IMG/VR virus record: IMGVR_UViG_3300046318_000188 | Coordinates: 32,001-96,000 of that record | DNA length: 64,000 nt | Source of the DNA: a virus | Reading direction: 5' to 3' (one strand) | Shown: piece by piece, positions 15,400 to 58,627 of the stretch | Layout: every line of letters begins with the position of its first letter | Position numbering within the stretch: the stretch's first letter is position 1 | The notes under the pieces: generated by a model | Seen by the model: the letters and a program-made list of their open reading frames with translations, nothing else | Database searches by the model: none | Told to the model about the DNA's origin: nothing | Made by a program: the position numbers and the translations under genes

Positions 15400-15842
15400 A
15401 AGTAAAATTTATTCCAATGTATATGGAGATTGCTGGCATTATCGCCAAACAATCTTCAGCCAAAAGATTACAGGTTGGTGCGATTGTCGTAAAAGAAGAT
15501 AGAGTAATCTCCATCGGTTATAATGGTATGCCTGCTGGTTGGACCAATGAATGTGAAGAAGTGGTAGAAGTTCATGAAGATGGTGGAATCGTCACCAAAA
15601 CCAAACCAGAGGTCATTCACGCAGAGGCTAATGCCATCGCTAAACTGGCCAAAGGCAATGAATCTGGAGATGGTTCCACGATGTTCCTGACCCACGCTCC
15701 ATGCCTAGACTGCGCTAAACAAATTTATACCGCCGGCATCAAAACGGTATATTTTAAAGATTATTATAAGAATGTTGATGGAATACAGTTCCTAGAACGG
15801 TGCCATGTAAAAATCAAGAGAATTTCACCTGGTGAAATCTAG
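15396..15842 (+). CDS. cd: dCMP deaminase
   Basis: 'IGYNG.P.G', HAEANA, PCLDC. Confidence 0.9.
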   Translation: MKVKFIPMYMEIAGIIAKQSSAKRLQVGAIVVKEDRVISIGYNGMPAGWTNECEEVVEVHEDGGIVTKTKPEVIHAEANAIAKLAKGNESGDGSTMFLTHAPCLDCAKQIYTAGIKTVYFKDYYKNVDGIQFLERCHVKIKRISPGEI

Positions 15843-15922
15843 GTGCTTGATAAATATTGGTAAGTGTGATATAATTTAATTCGAAATGTGCTTATTGGGT
15901 CAACTTATTAAGGAGAGACCTA

Positions 15923-16420
15923 ATGCAGTTAAGTATAGTCGGTTGTCCCGATAAAAAACATTTCCGCCCGTTTGTAAAAAGGGCTGCCTTATTTTACGCT
16001 TCCGAATTGATTAAACCTAAGATGTTAGAAAACATCTTTTTGAGAATTAAATTTAGTTCTAAGATTGAAGCTCATGGATATGCCTCTGTGATAGAGTTCA
16101 GTAGAAGTAATAAACCAAGACAGTTTGAAATTGAATTACATCCTGGTATCGGCGCAGCAGAAATATTAAAAACACTCAGTCATGAAATGGTGCATATTAA
16201 GCAATACATTTATGGTGATGTTAATTTAAATCTGACCAGATGGAAAGGCAGTAAAGTTTTAGAACCTGATTATTGGGTTCAACCATGGGAAATAGAAGCC
16301 TATGGTATGCAAGCAGGACTATTTACAAAGTTTGCAGTAAAAGAAAAATTATGGAATATATTTGATGATATGTGTGATCCTGATAGTCCGATAGAAATGA
16401 AACCATTAGGTTGGAAATAA
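15923..16420 (+). CDS. Zinc metallopeptidase-like protein
   Basis: HEMVH motif and 'PWEIEAY'; late-promoter-like GATAAATA upstream. Confidence 0.7.
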   Translation: MQLSIVGCPDKKHFRPFVKRAALFYASELIKPKMLENIFLRIKFSSKIEAHGYASVIEFSRSNKPRQFEIELHPGIGAAEILKTLSHEMVHIKQYIYGDVNLNLTRWKGSKVLEPDYWVQPWEIEAYGMQAGLFTKFAVKEKLWNIFDDMCDPDSPIEMKPLGWK

Positions 16421-16421
16421 A

Positions 16422-16494
16422 TGTTGCTAAAAAGCAACAGTATTTGGTAAATAATTACAAAGTTGTTGACAATTGAGCATATATACTATATCAT
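16422..16494 (+). promoter_or_regulatory. Promoter of tRNA-array leader with upstream TGTTG-N8-CAACA palindrome
   Basis: Palindrome 16422-16439; TTGACA(16466)-N17-TATCAT(16489). Confidence 0.7.
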
Positions 16495-16531
16495 ACACAG
16501 TATTGAATAAATTAATTAAGAAAGAAATAAA

Positions 16532-16633
16532 ATGTTGTTTGTAACGAAACCTTTATCCATGCAGTCAGAGTATCGCACACCGAGCAATTGGCCAGCGATT
16601 GGCTTTGACCATGCCTCAGGGGTTCGTGTATAG
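16532..16633 (+). CDS. Putative attenuator leader peptide (33 aa: MLFVTKPLSMQSEYRTPSNWPAIGFDHASGVRV)
   Basis: Read manually; final codons form the 5' arm of an antiterminator; 19 amino acids, 29 distinct codons. Confidence 0.65.
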   Translation: MLFVTKPLSMQSEYRTPSNWPAIGFDHASGVRV

Positions 16634-16694
16634 AACAAAAGTAATTTCCTTTCACACACGAACCCTAGTCTAAACAACTAGGGTTTTTTGTTTT
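16620..16694 (+). terminator. Attenuator: antiterminator 16620-16629/16656-16665 competing with terminator 16661-16669/16677-16685 + U tract
   Basis: GGGTTCGTGT/ACACGAACCC perfect 10 bp; AACCCTAGT/ACTAGGGTT 9 bp then TTTTGTTTT; the two share AACCC. Confidence 0.8.
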
Positions 16695-16705
16695 CCAGTT
16701 TCAAA

Positions 16706-16751
16706 TTACTAGACACTAAAATTTCAGTCTAGTAACGCTCTCTAAAAATTT
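16706..16751 (+). promoter_or_regulatory. boxB-like hairpin plus boxA-like antitermination element
   Basis: TTACTAGAC/GTCTAGTAA hairpin then CGCTCTCTAAAAATT (cf. rrn boxA TGCTCTTTAACA). Confidence 0.55.
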
Positions 16752-16764
16752 AAGTAGTAACTAT

Positions 16765-16838
16765 TGAGATATAGTGTAACGGTAGCACCACGCACTTTGA
16801 CTGCGTTAGCATAGGTTCAAATCCTATTATCTCTACCA
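16765..16838 (+). tRNA. tRNA-Gln(TTG)
   Basis: Cloverleaf, ACGCA-CTTTGAC-TGCGT, encoded CCA. Confidence 0.9.
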
Positions 16839-16840
16839 AT

Positions 16841-16934
16841 GGAAGGTAATGCAGCGGGGATGGTCCTGCGACTGGCCTTGAAAACCAGGTTCTGCCTAAA
16901 AGCGGATGGGGTTCGACTCCTCTGCCTTCCGCCA
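16841..16934 (+). tRNA. tRNA-Ser(TGA)
   Basis: Loop CTTGAAA, long variable arm, GCCA end. Confidence 0.9.
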
Positions 16935-17057
16935 TATTGAAGCATACTGCGGTGGTGTTACATATTATATCTAGTCAATATAATATGCCTATGCTAAGAG
17001 TATGATTAAATGTTCCGACAGCCTTAGACTAAGGTTCATTAGTGTGCTTCAATATGG
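16932..17057 (+). ncRNA. Stem-bounded RNA element 1 (RNase III-like stem)
   Basis: CCATATTGAAGCATACT ... AGTGTGCTTCAATATGG 17-bp stem. Confidence 0.6.
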
Positions 17058-17063
17058 TTTATT

Positions 17064-17150
17064 GGAAGATGTGTTGCAAGGTGCGACCGAAGTTTGCTAA
17101 ACTTCCGTTCAGAAATGGGCTGATAGGTTCGATTCCTATATCTTCCGCCA
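17064..17150 (+). tRNA. tRNA-Ser(GCT)
   Basis: GAAGT-TTGCTAA-ACTTC, long variable arm. Confidence 0.88.
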
Positions 17151-17152
17151 AT

Positions 17153-17227
17153 GGTGGTGTGACCGAATGGTGAGGTGACAGTCTGCAAAACTGGTCCAAG
17201 TAGGTTCGATTCCTATCACCACCTCCA
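17153..17227 (+). tRNA. tRNA-Cys(GCA)
   Basis: Loop CTGCAAA, U73, CCA. Confidence 0.9.
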
Positions 17228-17232
17228 GTATG

Positions 17233-17325
17233 TGTTGTACCAAAACAACAGTATCAAAAATAGTTCTTGTGGTATTTTTTGGTTCGTGTATAATAGTTGT
17301 TCTGTTGTAAAGTTCTTTAAAAATT
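17233..17325 (+). promoter_or_regulatory. Internal promoter with TGTTG-N8-CAACA box and boxA-like element
   Basis: Palindrome 17233-17250; TATAAT 17289-17294; GTTCTTTAAAAATT 17312-17325. Confidence 0.65.
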
Positions 17326-17338
17326 AAGTAGTAACAAT

Positions 17339-17413
17339 ACACCGTTCGTCTATCGGTTAGGACCCAAGGTTTTCAACCTTGTAAGAGGAGTTCAACTCTC
17401 CTACGGTGTACCA
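17339..17413 (+). tRNA. tRNA-Glu(TTC)
   Basis: CAAGG-TTTTCAA-CCTTG. Confidence 0.9.
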
Positions 17414-17527
17414 TATTGAAGCACATTTAAACCTTAACAGGTCGGTATTGGTAAGCCAAAACCTCTATTAGTAAGTTCGAGAATTTATTAGTAAGTTTAT
17501 TTCACCTTAATGTGTTTCAATATGGTA
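17409..17527 (+). ncRNA. Stem-bounded RNA element 2
   Basis: TACCATATTGAAGCACATT ... AATGTGTTTCAATATGGTA 19-bp stem. Confidence 0.6.
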
Positions 17528-17674
17528 AGTAATGGCAAAAAATATAATATTGTTCTTTTTAATCTTGCTAATATCGCGGTTAGTGGGTGACATAAGAAAA
17601 ATGTTAAACAAGTATGCGACCTAGAAGCGGGTGGACAAACGTGACTGTGGGCCACCAAGGTAGTCAACATTACA

Positions 17675-17753
17675 TACTATATTGAAACATATTAGATCAG
17701 TGACCGTTCCGACAGGTGCGGCGACATTAAAGTGAGTGTGTTTCAATATGGTA
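17675..17753 (+). ncRNA. Stem-bounded RNA element 3
   Basis: TACTATATTGAAACATATT ... AGTGTGTTTCAATATGGTA, three G-U pairs. Confidence 0.6.
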
Positions 17754-17754
17754 A

Positions 17755-17878
17755 TATCTGAAGCATAGCAAGTGATGCTAGAGGTAGGGGTAAGCATTGA
17801 ACTCGAGATAGGTGCTTATGAGTAACTCGACCGGTCTCACCCGGTGAAGCGTATTGCAACCATACGCCAGATACACCA
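17755..17878 (+). ncRNA. Multi-hairpin RNA ending in ACCA
   Basis: TATCTG/CAGATA closing stem with four internal hairpins, 3' CACCA. Confidence 0.5.
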
Positions 17879-17949
17879 TATTAAAACACACTTCAGGCGG
17901 GGAGGCTCCGCTCCAAATATCAAAGTGAGGTAGTGTGTTTCAATATGGT
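17875..17949 (+). ncRNA. Stem-bounded RNA element 4
   Basis: ACCATATTAAAACACACT ... AGTGTGTTTCAATATGGT. Confidence 0.6.
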
Positions 17950-18009
17950 ATGACTCTGCTGGGTATGAATCAGATTCTCCGGCGGGTAAGTTACTACCAT
18001 ATCAAATTT

Positions 18010-18084
18010 GGTTCGTTCATATAACGGTAATTATGCTGGACTGTCTATCCGGATACAGGAGTTCGATTCTCCTACGAACCGCCA
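18010..18084 (+). tRNA. tRNA-Asp(GTC)
   Basis: CTGGA-CTGTCTA-TCCGG, GCCA. Confidence 0.9.
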
Positions 18085-18092
18085 AGTTTTAT

Positions 18093-18170
18093 TGTCCGAG
18101 AGCAAGCAAGGTGTAGGCGCCTGACTGTTAATCAGGAATGAGTGAGGTTCGATTCCTCATCGGACAGCCA
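18093..18170 (+). tRNA. tRNA-Asn(GTT)
   Basis: CCTGA-CTGTTAA-TCAGG. Confidence 0.9.
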
Positions 18171-18179
18171 AGTTTCAAT

Positions 18180-18261
18180 GGTGTGGATGCTCTAATGGTA
18201 GGGCAGCGGGCTGTAAACCCGTGGCTTCGGCAAGTAGGTTCGATCCCTACCCACATCACCA
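18180..18261 (+). tRNA. tRNA-Tyr(GTA)
   Basis: GCGGG-CTGTAAA-CCCGT, variable arm. Confidence 0.9.
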
Positions 18262-18269
18262 AGTTTTAT

Positions 18270-18347
18270 CTCAGTATAGGCTAGCCTGGTCAAGTCACTC
18301 CGTTTGGGGCGGAGAGTGCGTAAGTTCGAATCTTACTACTGAGACCA
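18270..18347 (+). tRNA. tRNA-Pro(TGG)
   Basis: CTCCG-TTTGGGG-CGGAG. Confidence 0.9.
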
Positions 18348-18488
18348 TATTGTAGTTGTAACGATATTACTACGTTGCTAGAAGCGTAGTCTGACGGCTG
18401 GTTAAGGATACACGGTGTCCACGGAATAAGGGAACCAGAATTTCGAGTGCTGACAGGTAAGCTGTCATCTTTTTAAAGGAGAAGTAAA

Positions 18489-18671
18489 ATGAAACCAAGA
18501 AATATATTTGCCGTGTTGGCAAGTAAACGGAAGGCGGGCCCGCACCGCAAAAGCAATAAAGCTTTACGCAAGAAAGAAAAACAATCGGGGTATAATTCAA
18601 CGGCTAGAATATCCGGCTTTTACCCGGACTATCAGAGTTCGAATCTCTGTGCCTCGACCAGTTTATCTTAA
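18489..18671 (+). CDS. Small basic protein whose ORF runs into tRNA-Lys
   Basis: Strong AAAGGAG RBS; MKPRNIFAVLASKRKAGPHRKSNKALRKKEKQ, no stop before the tRNA. Confidence 0.6.
   Translation: MKPRNIFAVLASKRKAGPHRKSNKALRKKEKQSGYNSTARISGFYPDYQSSNLCASTSLS
18586..18660 (+). tRNA. tRNA-Lys(TTT)
   Basis: TCCGG-CTTTTAC-CCGGA. Confidence 0.9.
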
Positions 18672-18760
18672 AACATACTAACGCCAAAAACTGGCGGTCT
18701 AGCGTCAACTAGGCGAAACTGTATTTGACGATGCAGAGGATTAGTATGTTTCAAAATAAA
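18662..18760 (+). ncRNA. Stem-bounded RNA element 5 (possible pseudoknot)
   Basis: TTTATCTTAAAACATACTAA ... TTAGTATGTTTCAAAATAAA; loop CGTCAA complementary to downstream TTGACG. Confidence 0.55.
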
Positions 18761-18766
18761 TTGTAA

Positions 18767-18841
18767 GCTCTCAAAACATAAATGGTGATGTGCTGGTTTT
18801 GTAATCCAGATAACTTGGTTCGATTCCGAGTGAGAGCACCA
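18767..18841 (+). tRNA. tRNA-Thr(TGT)
   Basis: Loop TTTGTAA, GCTCTCA/TGAGAGC acceptor. Confidence 0.88.
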
Positions 18842-18846
18842 AATTT

Positions 18847-18918
18847 GGGCTGTGTGCAGGGGCACAAGGATGCTTTGCAAGCAACCTCTGGTCGGTTCGA
18901 TACCGACACGGTCCACCA
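18847..18918 (+). tRNA. tRNA-Ala(TGC), atypical short D arm
   Basis: Loop TTTGCAA; G3-U70 Ala identity pair. Confidence 0.75.
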
Positions 18919-18923
18919 AACAT

Positions 18924-18998
18924 GGTAGTGTAGCATAATGGTCGTGCGCCTCCTTCATACGGAGAAAAGTATAAGTTCGAATCTTATCACTACCACCA
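18924..18998 (+). tRNA. tRNA with CAT anticodon (probably elongator Met)
   Basis: CTCC-TTCATAC-GGAG. Confidence 0.82.
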
Positions 18999-19095
18999 GT
19001 TTGTTAAGTTAAGTGCAGTAACATGGGTTGAGTGATCCTCTCAGCCGATTAACAACGGAGTTGGCCGTACCGTCTGCATACGAGCCCCAAATTAT

Positions 19096-19172
19096 GGGTC
19101 ATTAACATCAAATGGAAGATGCCTGTCTTACGAAGTCAGAAGTTGGGAGTTCGAATCTCTCATGACCCTCCA
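19096..19172 (+). tRNA. tRNA-Arg(ACG)
   Basis: Loop TTACGAA. Confidence 0.85.
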
Positions 19173-19179
19173 GTTTTAC

Positions 19180-19253
19180 ACCTAGGTAGCTCAATGGTAG
19201 AGCAATCGGCTGATAACCGATAGACAGAAGTTCAATTCTTCTTCTAGGTACCA
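19180..19253 (+). tRNA. tRNA-Ile(GAT)
   Basis: ATCGG-CTGATAA-CCGAT. Confidence 0.92.
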
Positions 19254-19371
19254 GAGCAGACCCACAGGATCCGCAAGGCTGTCAAACTCTTAACCTGTTA
19301 AAATAAACAAGAGTGAGTTCCGCCAGTAACTTTCACAAGGAGATGAGTTGAATAAACTCACTGGCAACTAT

Positions 19372-19446
19372 TTCTCGGTGGTGTTAACGGTAGCACACTG
19401 GTCTCCAAAACCATAAGTTGCGGTTCGAATCCGTACCGGGAAGCCA
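19372..19446 (+). tRNA. tRNA-Trp(CCA)
   Basis: Loop CTCCAAA. Confidence 0.9.
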
Positions 19447-19466
19447 TAATAATAAAAGGAGTTAGC

Positions 19467-19943
19467 ATGAAAAAGTTAGATATAGTAGAAGTCAAAAGAT
19501 TCATTGAAGCACAATCTGAAGATACTAAAATCTATCTTGGTGCTGACTCTGAAAGATTTGAAATCAAAGGTGAATGGTATGCTGACTACACATTAGCAGT
19601 AGTTGTTCATATTGATGGATGTCATGGTTGTAAAATCTTTGGTGAAGTTATTCGTGAAAGAGATTATGACCAAAAGAAAAATAAACCTGCTTTAAGATTG
19701 ATGAATGAAGTTTACAAAGTTTCAGATTTATTTCAATCTCTTGCGGATGTATTAGAAGATAGGTACGTTGAGGTACATTTAGATATTAACCCAAATGAAT
19801 TATATGGTTCATCTTGTGTAGTTCAACAAGCGATTGGTTATATCAAAGGTACTTGTAATGTTATACCTATGGTTAAACCAAAAGCTTTTGCTGCTTCATA
19901 TGCGGCAGATAGATTAAAGTTTGTTTTAGCTGAAGCAGCTTAA
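19467..19943 (+). CDS. RNase H-like protein, YkuK/DUF458 family
   Basis: 'IYLGADS', 'RLMNEV', 'EVHLDIN', 'KPKAFAASYAAD'. Confidence 0.75.
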   Translation: MKKLDIVEVKRFIEAQSEDTKIYLGADSERFEIKGEWYADYTLAVVVHIDGCHGCKIFGEVIRERDYDQKKNKPALRLMNEVYKVSDLFQSLADVLEDRYVEVHLDINPNELYGSSCVVQQAIGYIKGTCNVIPMVKPKAFAASYAADRLKFVLAEAA

Positions 19944-19947
19944 CTAT

Positions 19948-20021
19948 GTGGCTCCTAGTGTAATGGTTGCACACTTGTCTGTGAAACAAGTAGAGAGGGT
20001 TCGATTCCCCGGTTCCACCCA
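19948..20021 (+). tRNA. tRNA-His(GTG)
   Basis: CTTGT-CTGTGAA-ACAAG; G-1:C73. Confidence 0.85.
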
Positions 20022-20030
20022 AAGGATATT

Positions 20031-20249
20031 ATGTATAGAGTAAAATGGATTAAAGATGTTTATGATAATGATGTAAAAGAATTTCATACTTTAGATGAAG
20101 CAATGAATTATGCAAAACAATTAGATATAACTGTTGAGATTAAAACTCCAGATTATACTGTTGTTGGTAAATTTGGAGTTGATTCAGTAGAAAATCTAAT
20201 TCTGCCGAATGGTGCAGAGTATGGATATGTAAAACGTAGATACAAGTAA
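20031..20249 (+). CDS. Hypothetical protein
   Basis: AAGGA RBS, 72 aa between tRNAs. Confidence 0.65.
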   Translation: MYRVKWIKDVYDNDVKEFHTLDEAMNYAKQLDITVEIKTPDYTVVGKFGVDSVENLILPNGAEYGYVKRRYK

Positions 20250-20252
20250 TAT

Positions 20253-20326
20253 GCCTCGGTAGTTTAATAGTAGAACACCGCTCTTACAAAGCGAAGACGG
20301 CGGAGCGTTACCGCAACGAGGTACCA
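20253..20326 (+). tRNA. tRNA-Val(TAC), non-canonical T loop
   Basis: Loop CTTACAA; T loop AGCGTTA. Confidence 0.78.
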
Positions 20327-20328
20327 AT

Positions 20329-20404
20329 GCAACTTTAGCTGATGTGGTCATAGCGGTGGTCTGAAGAGCCATTGAACCAAGTTCGATCCTTGGAGGTTGC
20401 ACCA
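20329..20404 (+). tRNA. tRNA-Phe(GAA)
   Basis: GTGGT-CTGAAGA-GCCAT. Confidence 0.88.
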
Positions 20405-20409
20405 GTTTT

Positions 20410-20483
20410 GCTCTTATAGTATAATGGCATTACACATCCTTGGTAAGGATGAAACACAAGTTCAATTCTTGTTAAGAGCACCA
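20410..20483 (+). tRNA. tRNA-Thr(GGT)
   Basis: CATCC-TTGGTAA-GGATG. Confidence 0.9.
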
Positions 20484-20485
20484 AT

Positions 20486-20562
20486 GCCCTTGTAGCGCAA
20501 TTGGTAGAGGCAATGGTCTTAGAAGCCATCAAGTGTCAGTTCGAATCTGACCAAGGGTACCA
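20486..20562 (+). tRNA. tRNA-Leu(TAG), short variable arm
   Basis: ATGGT-CTTAGAA-GCCAT. Confidence 0.88.
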
Positions 20563-20563
20563 A

Positions 20564-20640
20564 GCGGTTGTGATGGAAATGGTATACGTACCGGACTTAA
20601 AATTCGGGTTTTGTGGGTTCAAGTCCCACCTTCCGCACCA
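20564..20640 (+). tRNA. tRNA-Leu(TAA), short variable arm
   Basis: CCGGA-CTTAAAA-TTCGG. Confidence 0.85.
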
Positions 20641-20642
20641 AA

Positions 20643-20698
20643 TAACTTTACAATGATGTTGCTTTAACTTTACAATAGTGTTATAATAACTTTACAAT
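20643..20698 (+). repeat. Three 12-bp direct repeats at 22-bp period overlapping a promoter
   Basis: TAACTTTACAAT at 20643, 20665, 20687; TTGCTT(20659)-N17-TATAAT(20682) with extended -10 TG. Confidence 0.75.
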
Positions 20699-20701
20699 AA
20701 A

Positions 20702-20776
20702 CTGGCTATAGTATAATGGAGAATACAGAAGGCTTCTACCCTTTTAATGTGGGTTCGATTCCTGCTAGCCAGACCA
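20702..20776 (+). tRNA. tRNA-Arg(TCT)
   Basis: GAAGG-CTTCTAC-CCTTT. Confidence 0.9.
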
Positions 20777-20781
20777 AATTT

Positions 20782-20856
20782 GGGCCGTTAGCATATCGGT
20801 AGATGCCGGCGACTCATAATCGTCAGAAGAAAGTTCGACTCTTTCACGGCCCACCA
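20782..20856 (+). tRNA. tRNA-Ile2(CAT, lysidine type) probable
   Basis: GGCGA-CTCATAA-TCGTC anticodon arm like E. coli ileX. Confidence 0.75.
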
Positions 20857-20873
20857 AGTTTACCATAATGTTG

Positions 20874-20902
20874 TTGACAAAGTTGTATAAGTATAGTATA
20901 GT
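20874..20902 (+). promoter_or_regulatory. sigma70-type promoter inside tRNA array
   Basis: TTGACA-N17-TATAGT. Confidence 0.65.
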
Positions 20903-20921
20903 TACTACTTGAACGAAATAT

Positions 20922-20988
20922 GCGGTGTGTGATAGCACGATTCGAGATACCCTCTTGAATTATCTGAGCAAAGCAGACCACCGCTCCA
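20922..20988 (+). ncRNA. Degenerate tRNA-Gly-like RNA (ACC in loop)
   Basis: GCGGTG/CACCGC-TCCA acceptor with Gly identity; tiny D arm; T loop AGCAAAG. Confidence 0.55.
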
Positions 20989-20995
20989 AATTTAT

Positions 20996-21069
20996 GCGGG
21001 TATGATGTAAAGGTAACCTGAGTCCTTGCCAAGGACTATTTGAGAGTTCGATTCTCTCTGCCCGCTCCA
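20996..21069 (+). tRNA. tRNA-Gly(GCC)
   Basis: AGTCC-TTGCCAA-GGACT. Confidence 0.9.
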
Positions 21070-21084
21070 CTAAAAGGAATTGTT

Positions 21085-21288
21085 ATGGCTGCTGTAAAAT
21101 CTAAAAAGAAGAATCCAATGTTAACCAAGAATGGTAAACAGCGATTAGGTCCTTTGAACATTGAACAATTGTCTAAAATGTTAGATGGTGCTCGCAAGAA
21201 ACATATTCCTAAAATCAAGAAAGCCATTGCAAAGCGATTACAAACGCAACAGTTTGGCAAAGATGCAGAGCCAGTAGTTTCAGAATAA
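21085..21288 (+). CDS. Small basic hypothetical protein
   Basis: AAGGA RBS; MAAVKSKKKNPMLTKNGKQRLGPLN... Confidence 0.65.
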   Translation: MAAVKSKKKNPMLTKNGKQRLGPLNIEQLSKMLDGARKKHIPKIKKAIAKRLQTQQFGKDAEPVVSE

Positions 21289-21294
21289 AAATTT

Positions 21295-21368
21295 GCGGGA
21301 TTAGTTTAATGGTAAAACTAGAGGTTTCCAACCTTTCGTTGTCAGTTCGATTCTGTCATCCCGCTCCA
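21295..21368 (+). tRNA. tRNA-Gly(TCC)
   Basis: AGAGG-TTTCCAA-CCTTT. Confidence 0.9.
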
Positions 21369-21374
21369 GTTTGT

Positions 21375-21450
21375 TGGCATATAGCTCAGTTGGTAGAGCA
21401 CCGGACTGTTAATCCGTAGGTCCTTGGTTCGAGCCCAAGTTTGCCAGCCA
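21375..21450 (+). tRNA. tRNA-Asn(GTT), second copy
   Basis: Canonical D and T arms, loop CTGTTAA. Confidence 0.92.
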
Positions 21451-21495
21451 TATATAAGTGTTGTAATATGTTTATTTTATTAAGAAGGAATTGAA

Positions 21496-22272
21496 ATGAA
21501 AAAATCACTATTAGCAGTAATGTTGGTTGCATCAGGTGTAGTGTCAGCTGCAGAAGTATTTGATGGTAATCTTACAGGCAATATGACTTTAGCAAGTAAC
21601 TACGAATTTCGTGGTATTAGTTTAAGTCAAAATGGTCCTGCAATTCAAGGTGGTATCGACTACGCACATAGTTCAGGTATTTACATCGGTAACTGGAATT
21701 CCAGTATGCGTGGTGTTCCAAACATGAACAATGATGACATCGATAGTAATAGTGGTACACAATCAAATCTATATGCTGGTTGGCGTAAAGATGTTTACAA
21801 AGGCATTATTGTTGACTTAGGTACTATTAGTTACCTTTATCCTACCGCAACAGCCGGTGGTTCAAAAACAAATTACAGCACAAACGAAGTATATGCCGGT
21901 TTAGGTTATGGTCCTGTTTCTGTCAAGTTCAGCCAAACAACCTCAAATTACTTTGGTGTTAACAACAGTTCTGGCACACAATACTACCAAGCTGACATCA
22001 AACAAAGTTTAGGTGCTCTTGCATCACAACTCAAACCATTAAGTGTTGTTGCACATTATGGTCATACATCAATGGCTGGTAACGGCAACAGTAATTTGAA
22101 TTACAATGACATGAACATTGGTTTAGTATATTCATTCCCAGAGCAATGGGACTTAGGTGTTCGTTACTACACCAATTCATCTATGACAAGCACATTCCAA
22201 CAATATAATAGTTGGAATGGTACCAAGTTTTATGGTGATTCTGTTGTAGCAACATTGACAAAAACGTTTTAA
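21496..22272 (+). CDS. TorF-like (TIGR02001/Gcw_chp) outer-membrane beta-barrel
   Basis: Signal peptide; 'LASNYEFRGISLSQNGPAIQGGIDY.HSSG.Y.G.W.S'; terminal Phe. Confidence 0.8.
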   Translation: MKKSLLAVMLVASGVVSAAEVFDGNLTGNMTLASNYEFRGISLSQNGPAIQGGIDYAHSSGIYIGNWNSSMRGVPNMNNDDIDSNSGTQSNLYAGWRKDVYKGIIVDLGTISYLYPTATAGGSKTNYSTNEVYAGLGYGPVSVKFSQTTSNYFGVNNSSGTQYYQADIKQSLGALASQLKPLSVVAHYGHTSMAGNGNSNLNYNDMNIGLVYSFPEQWDLGVRYYTNSSMTSTFQQYNSWNGTKFYGDSVVATLTKTF

Positions 22273-22300
22273 GTATTAAACTGCTGGAGAAATCTCAGCA

Positions 22301-22507
22301 ATCATCATTGAGAATGTGAGCGTAAGAGTAAGCAATCCCAACTGTTAGGGAAATCACTATCCTTGAGGTATCCATCCGAGATCCGGAGATGACTGCTGGC
22401 TGAAGCAGTATGAAAGGTGTAATCAGGGAGAGGTCAGTACATAGGACGGGTTAAAGACCGCACCGGTGAGAACCTCTTAAACACAAAACAGTATTCTCAA
22501 TAATGAT
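22301..22507 (+). ncRNA. Large stem-bounded structured RNA (element 6)
   Basis: ATCATCATTGAGAATGT ... GTATTCTCAATAATGAT closing stem; GC-richer interior with several hairpins. Confidence 0.55.
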
Positions 22508-23543
22508 TAAGAAAATTAAAATCGCAATACTTGTACCATCATATAAAGAAGAAAAGGTAATTGATAAAACAATAGTTTCATTATTAAAAGCAGGATTCTT
22601 AAAAGAAGATATCTACATTGTTGATGATTGTTCTAAGGATGAAACGAGCAATATTGCTTTGAGTTATAATGTTAATGTTTTAACGCTTACAAAAAATTCA
22701 GGCAAAGCTGGAGCAACAAAATCTGGATTTGACCATTTCAATCTTATCAAAAGATATGATTGGGTTACGCTTGTTGACGGCGATTCAATTTTATCCAAAG
22801 ATTTCATTTCTGTATTAAAAACAGCAATTAAAAAAGATTCGAGTCCAGGTTTGTATGTTGGCCAAGTAGTCAGCATTAAAAACAATTCTATCTTTTCAAC
22901 TTATCGAGCATATGAATACACATATGGCCACGAAATTGTTAAGAAGGGACAAGATAACTTTGGCACAATCTTTGTAAGTCCTGGTTGTTGTAGTGTATAT
23001 CGTACCAATGTTTTAAAACAATTAGATATTTCAAGTGATACATTGGCTGAGGATATGGATTTAACCATACAGACACACCGATTAGGTTATCGTGTTCGAT
23101 ATTTACATGACCTTATTGCTTATACACAAGACCCAAATAATCTCAAAGATTTCTATAAACAGATTACTCGTTGGTACAGAGGATTCTGGCAGATTATGAA
23201 GAAGCATAAAGTGCTTTCTTTAACACAATGGAGTAAAGTAGATATATACTTAAAAATTATAACGATTGATGCAGTCATTTTTAATAGAATTTTCATGACT
23301 GTATTCGTTTTAGCGTTATTTGATTTAAAAGTATTGTTAATAGGCATGAGTATGGATTACTTACTCCTAGCAGCAATATCAATATACGCAGCAATTTTAG
23401 CCAAAAACTGGCGTATATTTTTTTATAGTCCAATATTTTATTTTATTGGATTGATGAATTCAACAGCATATTTGAAAGCATTTGTTGAGGTATTCATATT
23501 TGGTAAAATTGTATTAAGTTGGAATAAAGTTAAAAGATATTAA
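22503..23543 (+). CDS. Processive GT2 glycosyltransferase (PgaC/IcaA/cellulose synthase-like)
   Basis: DDCS, GKAGA, VDGD, AED, Q..RW motifs; C-terminal TM helices. Confidence 0.85.
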   Translation: MIKKIKIAILVPSYKEEKVIDKTIVSLLKAGFLKEDIYIVDDCSKDETSNIALSYNVNVLTLTKNSGKAGATKSGFDHFNLIKRYDWVTLVDGDSILSKDFISVLKTAIKKDSSPGLYVGQVVSIKNNSIFSTYRAYEYTYGHEIVKKGQDNFGTIFVSPGCCSVYRTNVLKQLDISSDTLAEDMDLTIQTHRLGYRVRYLHDLIAYTQDPNNLKDFYKQITRWYRGFWQIMKKHKVLSLTQWSKVDIYLKIITIDAVIFNRIFMTVFVLALFDLKVLLIGMSMDYLLLAAISIYAAILAKNWRIFFYSPIFYFIGLMNSTAYLKAFVEVFIFGKIVLSWNKVKRY

Positions 23544-23551
23544 CCAGTAAG

Positions 23552-23559
23552 TATAAATA
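23552..23559 (+). promoter_or_regulatory. T4-type late promoter
   Basis: TATAAATA. Confidence 0.6.
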
Positions 23560-23593
23560 CTTATATAACGTGTAAATTAATTATAGGAATAGT

Positions 23594-24130
23594 ATGAAAA
23601 AGATTATTTTAGCAGCATTAATAGGATTCGTAACAACGGCATACGCTGCGGATGAGATTCCTACAAAGGATTCAAAGTATACTCCTTCACCGGTTACTCA
23701 GGCAGAAGGCATGAATAGTTGGTTTAATGAGGCGAGTGCTGGTAGTGGCCCCATTGCAATGCCAGGATATTCTTGGGGATTTGCAGGAACACCAAGCACT
23801 TTTACAGCAGGAGCACCAAACAATGCTGTTGGATATTCTGCCAAAATTGAACAAGGTGTAGATTGGTTCGCTTTTGATGAAGATAAAAAGTGGAGATTCA
23901 ACACTTTTGTTAATGCTGTTATCAGCAAAGACACCAGTAATTATGCTTATACTTATGGTAACTTGTTTACTCCAGGTGTAGGTGCAAAGATTCGTAATGT
24001 ATATGATAGTGGCCTAATTGAAATTGGTGCACAATATGTAAAACAAAATAACTTAACTACATCATCAGCTAGTGGACAAGGCGTACAAGCCTTTGTTAGC
24101 TATTGGTTCGGTTGGGACTTAAAGAAATAA
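23594..24130 (+). CDS. Secreted, probable outer-membrane beta-barrel protein
   Basis: Signal peptide; alternating aromatic strands ending 'AFVSYWFGWDLKK'. Confidence 0.6.
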   Translation: MKKIILAALIGFVTTAYAADEIPTKDSKYTPSPVTQAEGMNSWFNEASAGSGPIAMPGYSWGFAGTPSTFTAGAPNNAVGYSAKIEQGVDWFAFDEDKKWRFNTFVNAVISKDTSNYAYTYGNLFTPGVGAKIRNVYDSGLIEIGAQYVKQNNLTTSSASGQGVQAFVSYWFGWDLKK

Positions 24131-24143
24131 TAGGAAAAATAAT

Positions 24144-24329
24144 ATGTCAGGTCCAGTCGCAAGCAATTCCTTGTTGTTCAATTTAGGTATGCGTTATCCA
24201 GTAGTTACTGCTGCAATTGCTACAGTTGCAACCGTAGCTACACTTAATGCACCATTAGAAATAGCACAAATTACACCACAACCAGCACCTACGGAGCTTC
24301 CAGTTTTACTTAAAACTATTGCAGGATAA
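24144..24329 (+). CDS. Small membrane protein
   Basis: AGGA RBS; hydrophobic Ala/Thr/Val stretch. Confidence 0.5.
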   Translation: MSGPVASNSLLFNLGMRYPVVTAAIATVATVATLNAPLEIAQITPQPAPTELPVLLKTIAG

Positions 24330-24338
24330 TTATTGATT

Positions 24339-24692
24339 ATGTTATTTGATGTGATTGTGAATGTGACTACTGCAATGATTTGTTTTACAGGACAATGTTA
24401 TCCTGTCCTTGTTGGAGATAATACTCCACTAGGTGAATATCAATTAACACCTTATCGTACTCCGATACCGGCTTATGGTGGTACTGTTTTAGCATTTAAA
24501 GAAACAGATAAGGTAGTATATGCTATTCATAGAACAATTGATGTTAAGGGACAAAATAGAGCCGTTAGGATTAAATCTCCTGATGTAAAACAAAGATTAC
24601 ATATCACCAATGGCTGTATTAATGTTGAACCTGAAGTATATCAAAAATTAATGAATTGTTGTTCTAAAAGTAAAGTGCAACTGATTAAATAA
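24339..24692 (+). CDS. L,D-transpeptidase-like (YkuD) protein
   Basis: 'TPLGEY', 'AIH...ITNGCINV' catalytic pattern. Confidence 0.6.
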   Translation: MLFDVIVNVTTAMICFTGQCYPVLVGDNTPLGEYQLTPYRTPIPAYGGTVLAFKETDKVVYAIHRTIDVKGQNRAVRIKSPDVKQRLHITNGCINVEPEVYQKLMNCCSKSKVQLIK

Positions 24693-24696
24693 TATT

Positions 24697-25089
24697 ATGA
24701 AAAATTTGTTGAGTATTCTTTTTATTATTTGTATGCCAGTATACGGCCAAACTTCTGGTATTGTAATTCACAATATTATGAGGTCACAGATTGCTCCAAA
24801 TGCCGGAGCACTATTCAATCTACAAGTTAAAGCTCCAGTAACTGAAGATGATTGGATTCAATTAAATAAAAATGTATCTGCATTACATAACGCAGCACAT
24901 TCTTTAAAAAAACTCAATACAAATACAGAATGGCAACAACGAGTAGATGCAATTGATATATTGTCCGAAATGTCAATCGAACAGGTTAAAGATAGAAATG
25001 TTCGAGGTCTATCGAACACAGGGAATGCACTATATAATTTATGTGAATCTTGTCATTATCAATTCTTTCCTAAAGGTAAGAATCTTTAG
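24697..25089 (+). CDS. Cytochrome c'-like protein
   Basis: Signal peptide, helical, C-terminal CESCH haem motif. Confidence 0.7.
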   Translation: MKNLLSILFIICMPVYGQTSGIVIHNIMRSQIAPNAGALFNLQVKAPVTEDDWIQLNKNVSALHNAAHSLKKLNTNTEWQQRVDAIDILSEMSIEQVKDRNVRGLSNTGNALYNLCESCHYQFFPKGKNL

Positions 25090-25100
25090 TATATAACAAT

Positions 25101-25175
25101 AGCGGTGTAGCTCAGTAGTAGAGCGCCGGACTCATAATCCGGATGTCGGTAGTGCGAATCTACCCACCGCAACCA
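25101..25175 (+). tRNA. tRNA-fMet-like (CAT)
   Basis: Unpaired 1:72 (A/A), CCGGA-CTCATAA-TCCGG. Confidence 0.8.
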
Positions 25176-25188
25176 ACAAGGAGATATT

Positions 25189-25344
25189 ATGTCAGAAGAT
25201 GATAAAAAATTTCATGAAGAACAATTAAAAAAGGTTCGAGATTTAAAACCTGTTGGCAAACCACAACAGAGGCCAGCATTAAAACCCAAACCAAATTTCG
25301 TACCTAAAAATACTGTAATGCGTAAAGCTGGCCGAGGTAGGTGA
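25189..25344 (+). CDS. Small basic hypothetical protein (51 aa)
   Basis: Read manually; AAGGAG RBS; MSEDDKKF...MRKAGRGR. Confidence 0.6.
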   Translation: MSEDDKKFHEEQLKKVRDLKPVGKPQQRPALKPKPNFVPKNTVMRKAGRGR

Positions 25345-25350
25345 TACAAC

Positions 25351-25644
25351 CTAACTTAAAGTATTTTGTCCCACAGCTAAAACACAACCCAATGATTTAT
25401 CCATTTCAATCAATGTCCATGATCCCGTTTCTTTATTGGAAAACATAACAATTTGAGTTTTTCTTTTGGTTATTTCATTTGAATAAAAGAAAACAGCGGA
25501 CTCTTTGAATTGAGTGTCAATCGTATAGAGAAGTATTTTGGTTGGAAAACATTGTACAGATTTGCTATAGAAATCGCCATCATTTTCTTTAGCAATTGTC
25601 ATTGAGGGTATCACAACAAGAAGCGCCAAAAGCAATTTTTTCAT
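25351..25644 (-). CDS. Secreted hypothetical protein
   Basis: AAGGA RBS on minus strand, signal peptide, 'N.ETGSWTLIE....GC'. Confidence 0.7.
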   Translation of the reverse strand: MKKLLLALLVVIPSMTIAKENDGDFYSKSVQCFPTKILLYTIDTQFKESAVFFYSNEITKRKTQIVMFSNKETGSWTLIEMDKSLGCVLAVGQNTLS

Positions 25645-25717
25645 CGGAATCCTTTTTTGGTATATAATTATATATGTCTTTACATTTGTATATTTTAGTA
25701 GTATAATGATTCATTAT

Positions 25718-25791
25718 GCGGGATTAGTTTAATGGTAAAACTAGAGATTTCCAATCTTTCGTCATCAGTTCGATTCTGATATCCCGCTCCA
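25718..25791 (+). tRNA. tRNA-Gly(TCC), second copy
   Basis: Near-duplicate of 21295-21368; promoter TTTACA-N17-TATAAT at 25679-25707. Confidence 0.9.
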
Positions 25792-25808
25792 CTTTATCAG
25801 GAGAAAAC

Positions 25809-26120
25809 ATGGAAGTATTAGCCCTTAAATTAATTACCGGTGAAGATTTACTTGGTGAACTAGAATCACAATCAGAAACCGAATTCGTTATTGTAAATCC
25901 TGTGGGTATTGCAGTAGTTCGTGGTAAAGATGGCACACCACAAGTTGGATTCTCACCATTCCCTATTCATGCGGAACAAAAATCAGGTGCAACTATTGCC
26001 TTGGCCAAGAAGAATGTAGTATACTCTTATACACCAGCAGAAGATTTTATTACAAACTATAGTTCAATCTTTGGTTCTGGTATTGTAGTTCCTCCACAAA
26101 AACAAATTATTACAGGTTAA
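25809..26120 (+). CDS. Conserved Sm-like fold protein upstream of gp43
   Basis: 'LKLITGEDLLGE', 'FGSGIVVP'. Confidence 0.7.
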   Translation: MEVLALKLITGEDLLGELESQSETEFVIVNPVGIAVVRGKDGTPQVGFSPFPIHAEQKSGATIALAKKNVVYSYTPAEDFITNYSSIFGSGIVVPPQKQIITG

Positions 26121-26121
26121 A

Positions 26122-28665
26122 TTGAGTAAATTCTATACTAATGTTCAATGTTTTGGTAACAACATTTTCTACCGTGGAGTTATAGACGGACAGAAAGTTA
26201 AACAAAAGATTGAATACTCACCATCTCTTTTTCTTCCATCACGGAAGAACCCACAAGGAATTTACAAATCTCTGACTGGTCTTCCATTAGACCAGAAAAT
26301 CTTTGGTACAATGCGTGAAGCAAGAGATTATGTAAAACAATTTGATGGTGTTCATGGTACTCCAATCATTTATGGTCAAACTCGTTTTGAATATGCCTTT
26401 ATTGCAGAACAACACAAAGGTATGGTCGATTATGATTATGACCATGTTTCTGTTGCCGTAATCGATATTGAGGTAGGTTCAGAGAATGGATTTCCTGACC
26501 CATATAAAGCAGAAGAACCCATTACAGCCATTTGTGTTAAGTTTCTAAATCAATCACCATTTGTATTTGCTTGTGGTGAATATGAAACACAAGGTAATGA
26601 AGTGTATATTCGTTGTAAAGATGAATATTCACTCTGTAAACAATTCATGCATTTCTGGAAAGACAAATATCCGGATGTCGTTACTGGTTGGAATACTAAG
26701 TTCTTTGATATACCATATCTTGTCAATCGTTTCAGAAAAATTCTTGGTGAAGATGAAGCTAAGAAATTATCTCCTTGGAATTATATTACAGAACGCAAAG
26801 CAAGAGTAAATAACCGTGAACTAATTGAATACAGTTTAGTTGGTATCTCATCACTTGATTATATTGAACTTTACAGATGGTATGCTCCTGGCGGTAAGTC
26901 ACAAGAATCATATCGTTTAGATGCCATTGCTCAAGTTGAATTGGGTGAAGGTAAAATCTCCTATGATGAGTATGATAATTTACATTCATTATATCGTTTG
27001 AACTTCCAAAAGTTTATTGAGTATAACATTAAAGACGTTGAGTTGATTGTTAAATTGGAAGATAAGTTGAAGTTGCTTGAATTGGCAGTAACTTTGGCAT
27101 ATGATACCAAATCAAACTTTGATGATGTATTTGCTCAAACCCGTATGTGGGATGCTCTGACTAATGCTTATTTGTTGGAGAAGAATATCATTGTACCACC
27201 TCGTATCGTTAAAGAAAAAGATGGTATGTTTGAAGGTGCATATGTTAAAGAAGTTCAGGTTGGTGCTCATGCTTGGGTTGCCTCATTTGACTTGAACTCT
27301 TTGTATCCACATTTGATGATGCAATATAATATCAGTCCAGAAACTCTCATTGAGCCGGCAGACTATACAGATGAAATGCGTGAGGTGCTTTCACAGGGTG
27401 TTTCTGTTGAGAAGATGTTAAACAAACAAATTGATACTTCAAATCTCAAAGATGTAACTATCACTCCTAATGGCCAATTCTTCCGTACGGACATCCAAGG
27501 TTTCTTACCTGGAATGATGGAAGAAATGTATAATGATAGAAGTAAGTTTAAAAAATTAATGCTTAAAGCAAAACAGGAATATGAAAATGAAAAAGACCCA
27601 AGTAAACTCTATGAAATCGAAAAACGAATTGCCAAATACAACAACATCCAGTTGGCGAAAAAAGTTTCTCTCAATTCTGCATACGGCGCTCTTGGTTCTC
27701 AGTATTTTCGTTTCTATGATTTGCGTATGGCTCTTGGCGTTACCACTGCGGGACAATTAAGCATTCGTTGGATTGAAGCCAAGATTAATGCTTGGATGAA
27801 TAAAATTTTGGAGACCAAAGATGTTGACTATGTTATTGCTTCTGATACTGATTCAATTTACCTACGAATGAGAGAATTGGTTGATAAATTTATTAAGGAT
27901 AAGTCCGATAAACAAAAAGTAATCTCTCTCATGGATAAAGTTTGTGAAGATAAGATACAACCTTATATCGATAAGTCTTATGATGAGTTGGCTGAATATG
28001 TTCACGCATATGGCCAGAAAATGCAGATGAAACGAGAAGGTCTATCTGATAAAGGTATTTGGACTGCCAAGAAGCGTTATATTCTGAATGTGTATAACAA
28101 TGAAGGTGTTCAATATAATGAACCACAGATGAAGGTGATGGGTTTGGAGATGATTAAGTCATCAACACCTGCCGTTATCCGTGAGAAGATGAAACAAGCA
28201 ATCACTATCATCATGAATGGTACTGAAGAAGATATTCATGAATTCATTAAAGAAGCCAAAAAAGATTTCATGGGATTACCACCGGAAGAAATCTCCTCAC
28301 CCCGTGGTTGTAACGGCTTGTCTAAATATTCGGACGCTTTATCAATGTATAAGTCTGGTACACCAATGCATGTCAAAGGTGCCATCTTATATAATCACTA
28401 TCTTAAAGAGAAAAAACTTACTAAAAAGTATCCACTCATACAAGAAGGCGAGAAACTAAAATATAGTTATCTCAAGATGCCTAATCCATTCAAAGATACC
28501 GTCATTTCATTCCCTGGTCGTTTACCTGTAGAATTTGGACTCAATGAATATATTGATTATGATGTTCAATTTGAAAAGGCCTTTGTTGAACCAATCAAAG
28601 TTATTCTAGATTGTATGAAGTGGTCAACTGAAAAAGTAAGTAGTTTGGAGGATTTCTTCTCATGA
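26122..28665 (+). CDS. gp43: Family B DNA polymerase gp43
   Basis: DIE exonuclease motif, SFDLNSLYP, K..LNSAYG, DTDS. Confidence 0.97.
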   Translation: MSKFYTNVQCFGNNIFYRGVIDGQKVKQKIEYSPSLFLPSRKNPQGIYKSLTGLPLDQKIFGTMREARDYVKQFDGVHGTPIIYGQTRFEYAFIAEQHKGMVDYDYDHVSVAVIDIEVGSENGFPDPYKAEEPITAICVKFLNQSPFVFACGEYETQGNEVYIRCKDEYSLCKQFMHFWKDKYPDVVTGWNTKFFDIPYLVNRFRKILGEDEAKKLSPWNYITERKARVNNRELIEYSLVGISSLDYIELYRWYAPGGKSQESYRLDAIAQVELGEGKISYDEYDNLHSLYRLNFQKFIEYNIKDVELIVKLEDKLKLLELAVTLAYDTKSNFDDVFAQTRMWDALTNAYLLEKNIIVPPRIVKEKDGMFEGAYVKEVQVGAHAWVASFDLNSLYPHLMMQYNISPETLIEPADYTDEMREVLSQGVSVEKMLNKQIDTSNLKDVTITPNGQFFRTDIQGFLPGMMEEMYNDRSKFKKLMLKAKQEYENEKDPSKLYEIEKRIAKYNNIQLAKKVSLNSAYGALGSQYFRFYDLRMALGVTTAGQLSIRWIEAKINAWMNKILETKDVDYVIASDTDSIYLRMRELVDKFIKDKSDKQKVISLMDKVCEDKIQPYIDKSYDELAEYVHAYGQKMQMKREGLSDKGIWTAKKRYILNVYNNEGVQYNEPQMKVMGLEMIKSSTPAVIREKMKQAITIIMNGTEEDIHEFIKEAKKDFMGLPPEEISSPRGCNGLSKYSDALSMYKSGTPMHVKGAILYNHYLKEKKLTKKYPLIQEGEKLKYSYLKMPNPFKDTVISFPGRLPVEFGLNEYIDYDVQFEKAFVEPIKVILDCMKWSTEKVSSLEDFFS

Positions 28666-58390: not shown

Positions 58391-58627
58391 ATGCCGAAAA
58401 CATTCAAACAATTTGTGGAAGCAATAAACAAAAACAACCTATTCCGTAAACTACAAAAAGATTTACCAAAAGTCAATGATCCTAAAAACAAAGACGCCAA
58501 ACCAGTCAAATGGACTGGACCTGGCAAAGATGACTATGGTTACACGGGATATCAAGGTCATGGTATGCCGACCGATAAGGCAGAACGAGCTCGTATCGCT
58601 GCTGATAAGAAGAAAAACAATAAGTAA
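58391..58627 (+). CDS. Small protein with capsid-targeting-like N-terminus
   Basis: MPKTFKQFVEA. Confidence 0.55.
   Translation: MPKTFKQFVEAINKNNLFRKLQKDLPKVNDPKNKDAKPVKWTGPGKDDYGYTGYQGHGMPTDKAERARIAADKKKNNK

Follow-up and report, generated by a model that had tools for sequence, protein, structure and literature searches.

The leader element upstream of the tRNA genes

The stretch of DNA analyzed here, referred to as the window, comprises 64,000 nucleotides (nt) of the virus record IMGVR_UViG_3300046318_000188 (positions 32,001 to 96,000). It is part of a 121.9-kb viral contig of a lake phage, has a G+C content of 35% and carries nearly all of its genes on the plus strand. Its family-B DNA polymerase is about 50% identical to the DNA polymerases of T4-like cyanophages (cyanomyophages). 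ARAGORN identified 27 tRNA genes in the window, 25 of which are located within positions 16765-21450, and Rfam gave additional tRNA-like matches at 16841-16930 and 20253-20323. The subject of this article is the element at positions 16422-16764, immediately upstream of this array, which, judging from the sequence comparisons presented below, is probably a ribosome-mediated (leader-peptide) transcription attenuator of the phage tRNA genes.

The element consists of a sigma-70-type promoter, a short open reading frame (ORF) and an intrinsic terminator, with a helix between the end of the ORF and the terminator, and is followed by a gene for tRNA-Gln (Table 1). An earlier note, made from the sequence alone, had described the promoter, the 33-codon ORF with its 19 amino acids and 29 codons, the 10-bp complement, the terminator and the tRNA, and all of these features are present. 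Transcription is predicted to start near position 16501, and the ORF begins 37 nt 3' of the -10 box. The antiterminator helix includes the three bases with which the terminator stem begins, and the two structures would thus be mutually exclusive. No promoter-like site was found in the interval between the terminator and tRNA-Gln (16695-16764), and a search with Rfam 15 (cmscan, E up to 1) of positions 15500-26500 gave no family match inside 16422-16764. The leader transcript is strongly structured (z=-4.1). In its minimum-energy fold, the region around the ribosome-binding site (RBS; 16519-16527) pairs with a pyrimidine-rich segment (16645-16654) in the antiterminator loop, a pairing that could conceal the RBS in the terminated leader RNA.

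Table 1. Features of the leader element and the beginning of the tRNA array, with positions in the window.
Feature	Position	Strand	Basis or remark
Hairpin of 7 bp just 3' of the stop of the 165-amino-acid gene	16422..16439	+	Resembles a terminator on either strand, with a weak T tail; forms the stem of a cassette of stem-loop and promoter
Sigma-70-type promoter, TTGACA-17-TATCAT	16466..16494	+	11/12 consensus matches; TTGACA-17-TATAAT at the same place in the homologous leaders of L244 and L242
Weak purine-rich RBS, AAGAAAG	16518..16524	+	Conserved in L011, L215 and L244
Leader ORF, 33 codons, stop TAG; 19 amino-acid types (no Cys), 29 distinct codons	16532..16633	+	ORF and composition count
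Hairpin P within the ORF, codons ~9-28; possible pause or structural hairpin	16558..16613	+	-21.5 kcal/mol vs -13.8 in shuffles, P=0.013
Antiterminator 5' arm, the last codons of the ORF; stop codon begins 1 nt later	16620..16629	+	Perfect 10-bp complement to 16656-16665
Antiterminator 3' arm; the terminator stem begins with the last 3 nt of this arm (16663-16665)	16656..16665	+	Core invariant in 16 close relatives; changed with compensation in distant ones
Intrinsic terminator with stem at 16660-16686: core stem 16663-16669/16677-16683, extended by A/U pairs from 16660; T run beginning at 16684	16660..16694	+	Terminator scan, covariation
Downstream leader of the tRNA transcript with a hairpin of 9 bp, followed by an element that recurs at 17312-17335	16706..16761	+	Sequence
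tRNA-Gln(TTG), first gene of the array	16765..16838	+	ARAGORN, Rfam
tRNA with long variable arm, probably Ser (TGA anticodon read by eye)	16841..16930	+	Rfam tRNA clan, 38 bits; missed by ARAGORN

Conservation of the helix, the reading frame and the leader content

Relatives of the element were collected by several routes, namely a search with the 165-amino-acid gene upstream of the leader, which yielded 80 related viral loci, a scan for the terminator and its 5' flank (19 stretches), a metagenome scan (25), a search with the back-translated peptide pattern (6) and a search with a 25-mer from the conserved long-arm tRNA (115). The collected loci are labeled with L in the following. A loose pattern scan returned mostly unrelated matches, and the loci L082-L200 were excluded from the counts, except for the members L117 and L196. 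In the phage GenBank collection, matches to tRNAs only were obtained and a relative of the leader was not found.

The modules occur in two forms. The long form has an ORF of 32-41 codons (57 in one case) and a 5' untranslated region resembling that of the window, and the distance from the T run to the first tRNA is 76-129 nt in the window, L011 and L215. The ORF of the short form has 22-26 codons, and its ATG is located 5-6 nt 3' of the -10 box in 15 of 18 modules, as judged by eye, which is how a leaderless mRNA is laid out. Only 4-11 nt separate the T run from the first tRNA in 16 of the 19 modules of this form. This leaves no room for a promoter, and transcription of those tRNAs would thus be possible only by read-through of the terminator. 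A complementarity-filtered search recovered seven more modules of ORF, helix and terminator, with other arm sequences and peptides of 38-48 residues (L288, L299, L326, L348, L356, L323, L344). These modules lacked a called tRNA in the following 160 nt and were therefore excluded from the counts; they may be more distant members.

The earlier note had proposed an attenuator architecture, and this architecture turned out to be conserved and enriched in front of tRNA genes. All distinct terminators located at most 160 nt before a tRNA in the collected loci were considered, irrespective of what lies upstream of them (n=47), and a helix with a minimum of 7 Watson-Crick pairs, or of 9 pairs if one of these was G-U, was scored when its 3' arm overlapped the terminator stem by 2-5 nt. 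An alternative helix of this kind was observed at 36 of the 47 terminators and at none of the 47 when the upstream 98 nt were shuffled. With Watson-Crick pairs only, it was identified at 20 of 34 terminators that precede a tRNA, compared to 11 of the 148 that do not (P=2e-10, Fisher test).

Compensatory changes in relatives, which the earlier note had suggested as a check, were found in both the antiterminator and the terminator stem. The antiterminator is represented by at least 14 distinct pairs of arms, the sequences of which differ among the distant members while complementarity is kept, and changes in one arm only give rise to G-U pairs on the plus strand only. That the arms vary and yet remain complementary, with G-U pairs that are specific to one strand, is consistent with selection that acts on the transcript and not on a DNA site bound by a protein. 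In the terminator stem, compensatory changes were observed at 2 of the 9 pairs, 100% of the cells were paired, and none of 500 shuffles reached the score. A third variant of this stem is present in L244. RNAalifold recovered the terminator alone from the 13 short forms. At the position of hairpin P, a hairpin with z<0 was predicted in 30 of 31 relatives, with one compensatory change between L251 and L324.

The short ORF was also retained together with the hairpins. As determined by a script, 34 of the 36 helix-bearing modules have an ORF that extends through the antiterminator 5' arm, and the ORFs of the remaining two start with GTG. The stop codon is located at most 5 nt after the 5' arm in 29 of the 34 modules and 13-17 nt after it in the other 5. 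Among the 13 aligned short forms, indels in the ORF are 3, 6 or 9 nt long, and those in the neighboring loop are 1-2 nt long. Compared to the window, the distant long form in L077 has synonymous changes in codons for leucine, proline and serine, including one serine codon that is altered at all three positions. From these patterns we infer that the leader ORF is very probably translated. The leader peptide is only moderately constrained, as measured by the pairwise ratios of nonsynonymous to synonymous changes (pN/pS), most of which are 0.4-1.0. Searches of four leader peptides with the Pfam-A and PHROGs profiles (E up to 1) gave no family and a single weak PHROG match (E=0.29).

The long leaders contain an unusually broad set of amino acids. 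The peptide in the window was compared to 40,000 segments of 33 codons, drawn at random from 61 long ORFs in the window (P=0.009 for at least 19 amino acids) and to composition-matched shuffles of the ORF (P=0.017). All 20 amino acids were identified in 12 of the 19 distinct long leaders and at least 19 in 18 of them, whereas 15-18 are expected per long leader from the genes of this phage (P 0.0006-0.08 each). Base composition does not explain this breadth, as judged from composition-matched shuffles, which gave P<0.03 for 16 of the 19 leaders. When those residues were kept constant that a leader has in common with its closest non-identical relative, P was still below 0.07 in 11 of the 19, a modest signal for single leaders. 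Histidine, arginine and other residues shift their positions among the long leaders while the set of amino acids stays complete. By these counts, near-complete coverage of the amino acids characterizes the long leaders as a family. The suggestion in the earlier note that the leader spans nearly all amino acids thus stands for the long form, but not for the short form, in which aspartate and internal methionine are absent, asparagine, threonine and serine are about twice as frequent as in the background, and tryptophan is abundant.

The claim that the leader is a "pan-codon" sequence that samples the isoacceptors fared less well. The 29 distinct codons do exceed the number in random 33-codon windows (P=0.0006), but the excess is weaker against the composition-matched shuffles (P=0.084). 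The codon count given the peptide is at chance level in 16 of the 19 long leaders (P<0.05 in 3 of 19), and the switching between synonymous codons at repeated residues, to which the note had drawn attention, is also at the level of chance given the peptide. The codons of the leader end in G or C more often than in the genome, as had been noted: the G+C content at third codon positions (GC3) is 0.485, compared to a gene mean of 0.269 (P=0.032). However, the G/C-ending codons are located largely inside predicted hairpins.

The content of the leader was also compared to that of the array it precedes. In a permutation test, the leaders fitted their own arrays better than permuted ones, with P=0.00095 and 0.0001 for the 12 of 34 modules that were used, the arrays of which end more than 1300 nt inside the locus, and P=0.009 and 0.029 for the 7 short forms among them, although these are small and related samples. 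Among the fully covered arrays, those behind long leaders contain 16-25 tRNAs and those behind short leaders 3-14. Long leaders with 19-20 amino acids precede arrays that cover 16-20 amino acids, and tandem runs of one codon are absent. The short leader in L240 is rich in leucine and precedes tRNAs for leucine, tryptophan, threonine, asparagine and methionine, and the short leader in L117 has two histidines and two cysteines in front of an array that begins with tRNA-His and includes tRNA-Cys. These comparisons support the conclusion that the leader content tracks the array content.

A putative ribosome-controlled switch and other explanations

Folding predictions, all of them at equilibrium, are consistent with a switch between two states. 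The isolated antiterminator hairpins, with predicted energies of -13.3 to -15.9 kcal/mol, are slightly more stable than the isolated terminator hairpins (-12.1 to -12.7 kcal/mol). When the nascent RNA was folded from the ATG, the antiterminator was part of the minimum-energy fold in 14 of 16 cases. In the complete free RNA the terminator state was favored in 20 of 21 cases, because sequences further upstream pair with the 5' arm, a pairing that is without statistical support. With the footprint of a ribosome placed at A-site codons ~5-13, the antiterminator was favored or equal in most members. A ribosome on the last codons, or with the stop codon in the A site, is predicted to cover the 5' arm.

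We favor, as a probable interpretation, an attenuator that is controlled by the position of the ribosome, for which we infer the direction of the switch and the signal sensed as follows. The host RNA polymerase would start at the promoter at 16466-16494 and transcribe the 33-codon leader ORF, after which 16620-16629 could pair with 16656-16665. On arriving at the end of the ORF, a ribosome would mask the 5' arm, so that the terminator forms and transcription stops before tRNA-Gln. If the ribosome is delayed earlier in the ORF, the arm would be free, the antiterminator would form, and transcription would enter the tRNA genes. The leader in the window holds nearly all amino acids, like those relatives of the long form that contain all 20, and slow decoding of almost any of them could thus open the switch. 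In the short relatives with small arrays, the leaders are enriched for the amino acids of those arrays. One hypothesis, which we put forward more tentatively, is that the leader is a gauge of general decoding capacity that co-evolves with the tRNA repertoire of the phage. Each amino acid for which the array provides a tRNA would then be represented in the leader. Loss of any of the corresponding host tRNAs, through host shut-off, starvation or an anticodon-nuclease defense, might open the terminator and turn on the replacement set, which would make this single 200-nt RNA switch a demand-driven counter-defense circuit.

Several observations weigh against this interpretation. The RBS, which the earlier note had already described as weak, is indeed weaker than the GGAG-type sites present in 32 of the 70 long ORFs. 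The window leader uses 29 codons, which is at chance (P=0.14) if its peptide and the codon usage of the genome are taken as given. It lacks cysteine even though the array contains tRNA-Cys, and four short leaders (in five modules) lack glutamate even though their arrays contain tRNA-Glu. Some conserved residues of the peptide (EYR...CAD) coincide with the arms of hairpin P and may owe their conservation to this RNA structure instead of to the peptide. Among the 16 closest relatives, the 8-bp antiterminator core is constant apart from one change from G-C to G-U, and these relatives are thus uninformative about covariation. The covariation comes from distant members that were gathered in part by a complementarity filter, a bias that the test on 47 terminators avoids. 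Pairing within the antiterminator loop was no better than in shuffles (P 0.08-0.84), and the same holds for a "region 1:2" duplex in 17 of 21 cases, including the window (P=0.68), with significance in one subclade only. In L236, L022 and L062, a promoter is located 3' of the terminator, so that some arrays would be independent of read-through. The sequences are related throughout, and the P values therefore overstate their independence. Small shares were detected in 13 runs of RNA libraries, and contigs from four runs gave fragments over the tRNAs, including one 151-nt contig that is identical to 16706-16838. Another contig covers 16476-16620 at a depth of 2, but such sparse contigs cannot show starts, ends or read-through, and carry-over of DNA is possible.

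The same RNA switch could in principle be operated by an arrest peptide, similar to TnaC or SecM, which stalls the ribosome in a sequence-specific manner in response to one signal rather than to the general speed of decoding. The long leaders do share K-P, Q-x-E-Y-R-T, C-A-D, a tryptophan and a terminal G-[FV]-[CR]-V, and the pN/pS values would suit such a peptide. We nevertheless regard it as distinctly unlikely, considering that the distance from the tryptophan to the stop codon varies from 6 to at least 13 residues among the members, that several of the conserved residues are located in paired arms of hairpin P or the antiterminator, that histidine and arginine move while the full set of amino acids is kept, and that neither Pfam nor PHROGs gave a known family for the four leaders searched. 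The module might also be an ordinary gene for a small protein with its own terminator, the product of which acts in trans; the helix would then be incidental or stabilize the mRNA, and the tRNAs would be transcribed by leaky read-through. The conserved frame and residues, the strong promoters and the separate tRNA promoter after the module in L236 are all in accordance with this explanation, which we consider unlikely in that it leaves unexplained the overlap of the helix with the terminator, the position of the stop codon at the 5' arm, the coverage of all 20 amino acids and the tracking of the array.

It is very unlikely that the transcript is a non-coding small RNA, or a plain 5' leader of the tRNA precursor, with an untranslated ORF. 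Stable small RNAs are encoded in the tRNA region of T4, the RBS in the window is weak and the transcript is strongly structured, but a non-coding RNA would not be expected to accept indels in multiples of three only within the ORF and of 1-2 nt in the adjacent loop. Nor would it account for the synonymous substitutions, including the serine codon that differs at all three positions, or for the leaderless-like position of the ATG in the short forms, and a match in Rfam was not found. Most improbable in our opinion is an element that acts at the level of the DNA, such as a terminator/promoter recombination cassette of the PeSL type or an inverted repeat bound by a protein. PeSLs have been described in T4-type phages (PMC4122927), the end of the leader resembles the spacer and -10 box of a promoter cassette found repeatedly in front of internal tRNAs, and the 8-bp core is present 7 times in the window where 0.65 copies are expected. 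However, the arms differ by clade with complementarity kept and with strand-specific G-U pairs, which fits an RNA; among the other copies of the core, four coincide with stretches occupied by long ORFs, and the promoter-like cassette at 17281 accounts for one more; and no promoter was found after the terminator in the window.

Comparison to known systems and the surrounding genes

Leader-peptide attenuators are classically known from amino-acid operons, such as the leaders trpL, hisL, thrL and that of ilvGMEDA, and also pheL. The element resembles these in having a promoter-proximal short ORF, an intrinsic terminator and a mutually exclusive antiterminator, with the position of the ribosome as the predicted decider. 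The folding in silico also follows the classical pattern, in that the free RNA or a ribosome at the stop codon favors the terminator and an early stall the antiterminator. Unlike the classical attenuators, it is carried by a phage and would control tRNAs instead of enzymes, it has no run of a single amino acid but, in the long forms, all or nearly all 20 with one or two occurrences of each, support for a conserved 1:2 helix was not obtained, and many of the short forms are apparently leaderless.

The closest likeness in how the switch would work is the attenuator of whiB7/wblC in the Actinobacteria, in which stalling on an upstream ORF (uORF) is believed to give antitermination (PMC10274678). 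According to the part of that paper accessible to us, whiB7 is activated by starvation for many amino acids and by inhibition of genes for tRNAs and their synthetases, and the composition of the uORF sets what is sensed (PMC10274678). In both cases, stalling for many different reasons would lead to antitermination. There is no sequence relation between the two, and the whiB7 switch differs, on the same partial description, in being cellular, in regulating a transcription factor and in having an alanine-enriched uORF.

A long tRNA array in Anabaena (the trn operon) is reportedly induced by translational stress. As in the element proposed here, the extra tRNAs would be off by default and on when translation is impaired, but control in Anabaena is exerted by a repressor protein, TrcR, according to the accessible part of the source (PMC10272220), rather than by a leader peptide and a terminator.

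The PeSL cassettes of T4-type phages have been described as recombination sites made up of a stem-loop followed by a promoter (PMC4122927). Like the modules, they occur in a T4-like phage and have sigma-70 promoters in the vicinity of an intergenic stem-loop that is conserved and carries a T run, and in L022, L062 and L236 a promoter also follows the terminator. In the accessible part of their description there is neither an ORF nor a competing helix, whereas the order in the window is promoter, ORF, helix and terminator, with no promoter thereafter. By analogy, PeSLs explain the neighboring units of a stem plus a promoter, but not the ORF or the competing helix. Such units, with a stem-loop, a sigma-70 promoter and a conserved spacer, are present at 16422-16494 and, before internal tRNAs, at 17231-17296 in the window, and also in L002, L008, L204, L236 and L062. 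The spacer and -10 box of this cassette closely resemble the last codons and the stop codon of the leader ORF in the window, a resemblance that may be the trace of recombination of the PeSL type.

It is a long-standing question why phages carry genes for tRNAs. In recent work these genes have been tied to the loss of host tRNAs and to defenses that target tRNAs (PMC10264068, in its accessible part). Our literature search, which did not reach older work on T4 and T5, found no paper that describes such control of phage tRNA arrays, and in one paper on phage tRNAs and defense the words attenuation, terminator and promoter are absent from the text that was accessible. If the proposed mechanism is correct, the phage itself gauges decoding, from the progress of ribosomes along a leader in which all 20 amino acids are represented, and supplies tRNAs on demand; where the array is small, the leader spells out the amino acids of that array. 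Attenuation by leader peptides would then extend beyond the genes for amino-acid biosynthesis and synthetases to tRNA genes, and the element would represent a compact and portable sensor of translation stress.

Some features of the surrounding region were also observed. The element at 16736-16761, which is repeated at 17312-17335, is located where the first two transcription units of the tRNAs begin, and a similar string is located 3' of the terminator in L077. The 25-mer from the long-arm tRNA at 16841-16930 has exact matches in 115 viral stretches, from varied phage contigs. ARAGORN was incomplete, in that it missed this tRNA in the window and, as judged by eye, the first tRNA in L228. The 165-amino-acid gene upstream of the leader (15923-16420) contains an HExxH-like motif and has relatives in 426 viral stretches, with no match in Pfam. 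Between the end of the main tRNA block at 21450 and the tRNAs at 25101 and 25718, the region 21496-23543 contains genes for a Gcw_chp outer-membrane-type protein and a family-2 glycosyltransferase, an unusual cargo in a tRNA region. Further downstream, the start region of the ORF at 58627-59067 resembles, by eye, the motif of GIY-YIG homing endonucleases.

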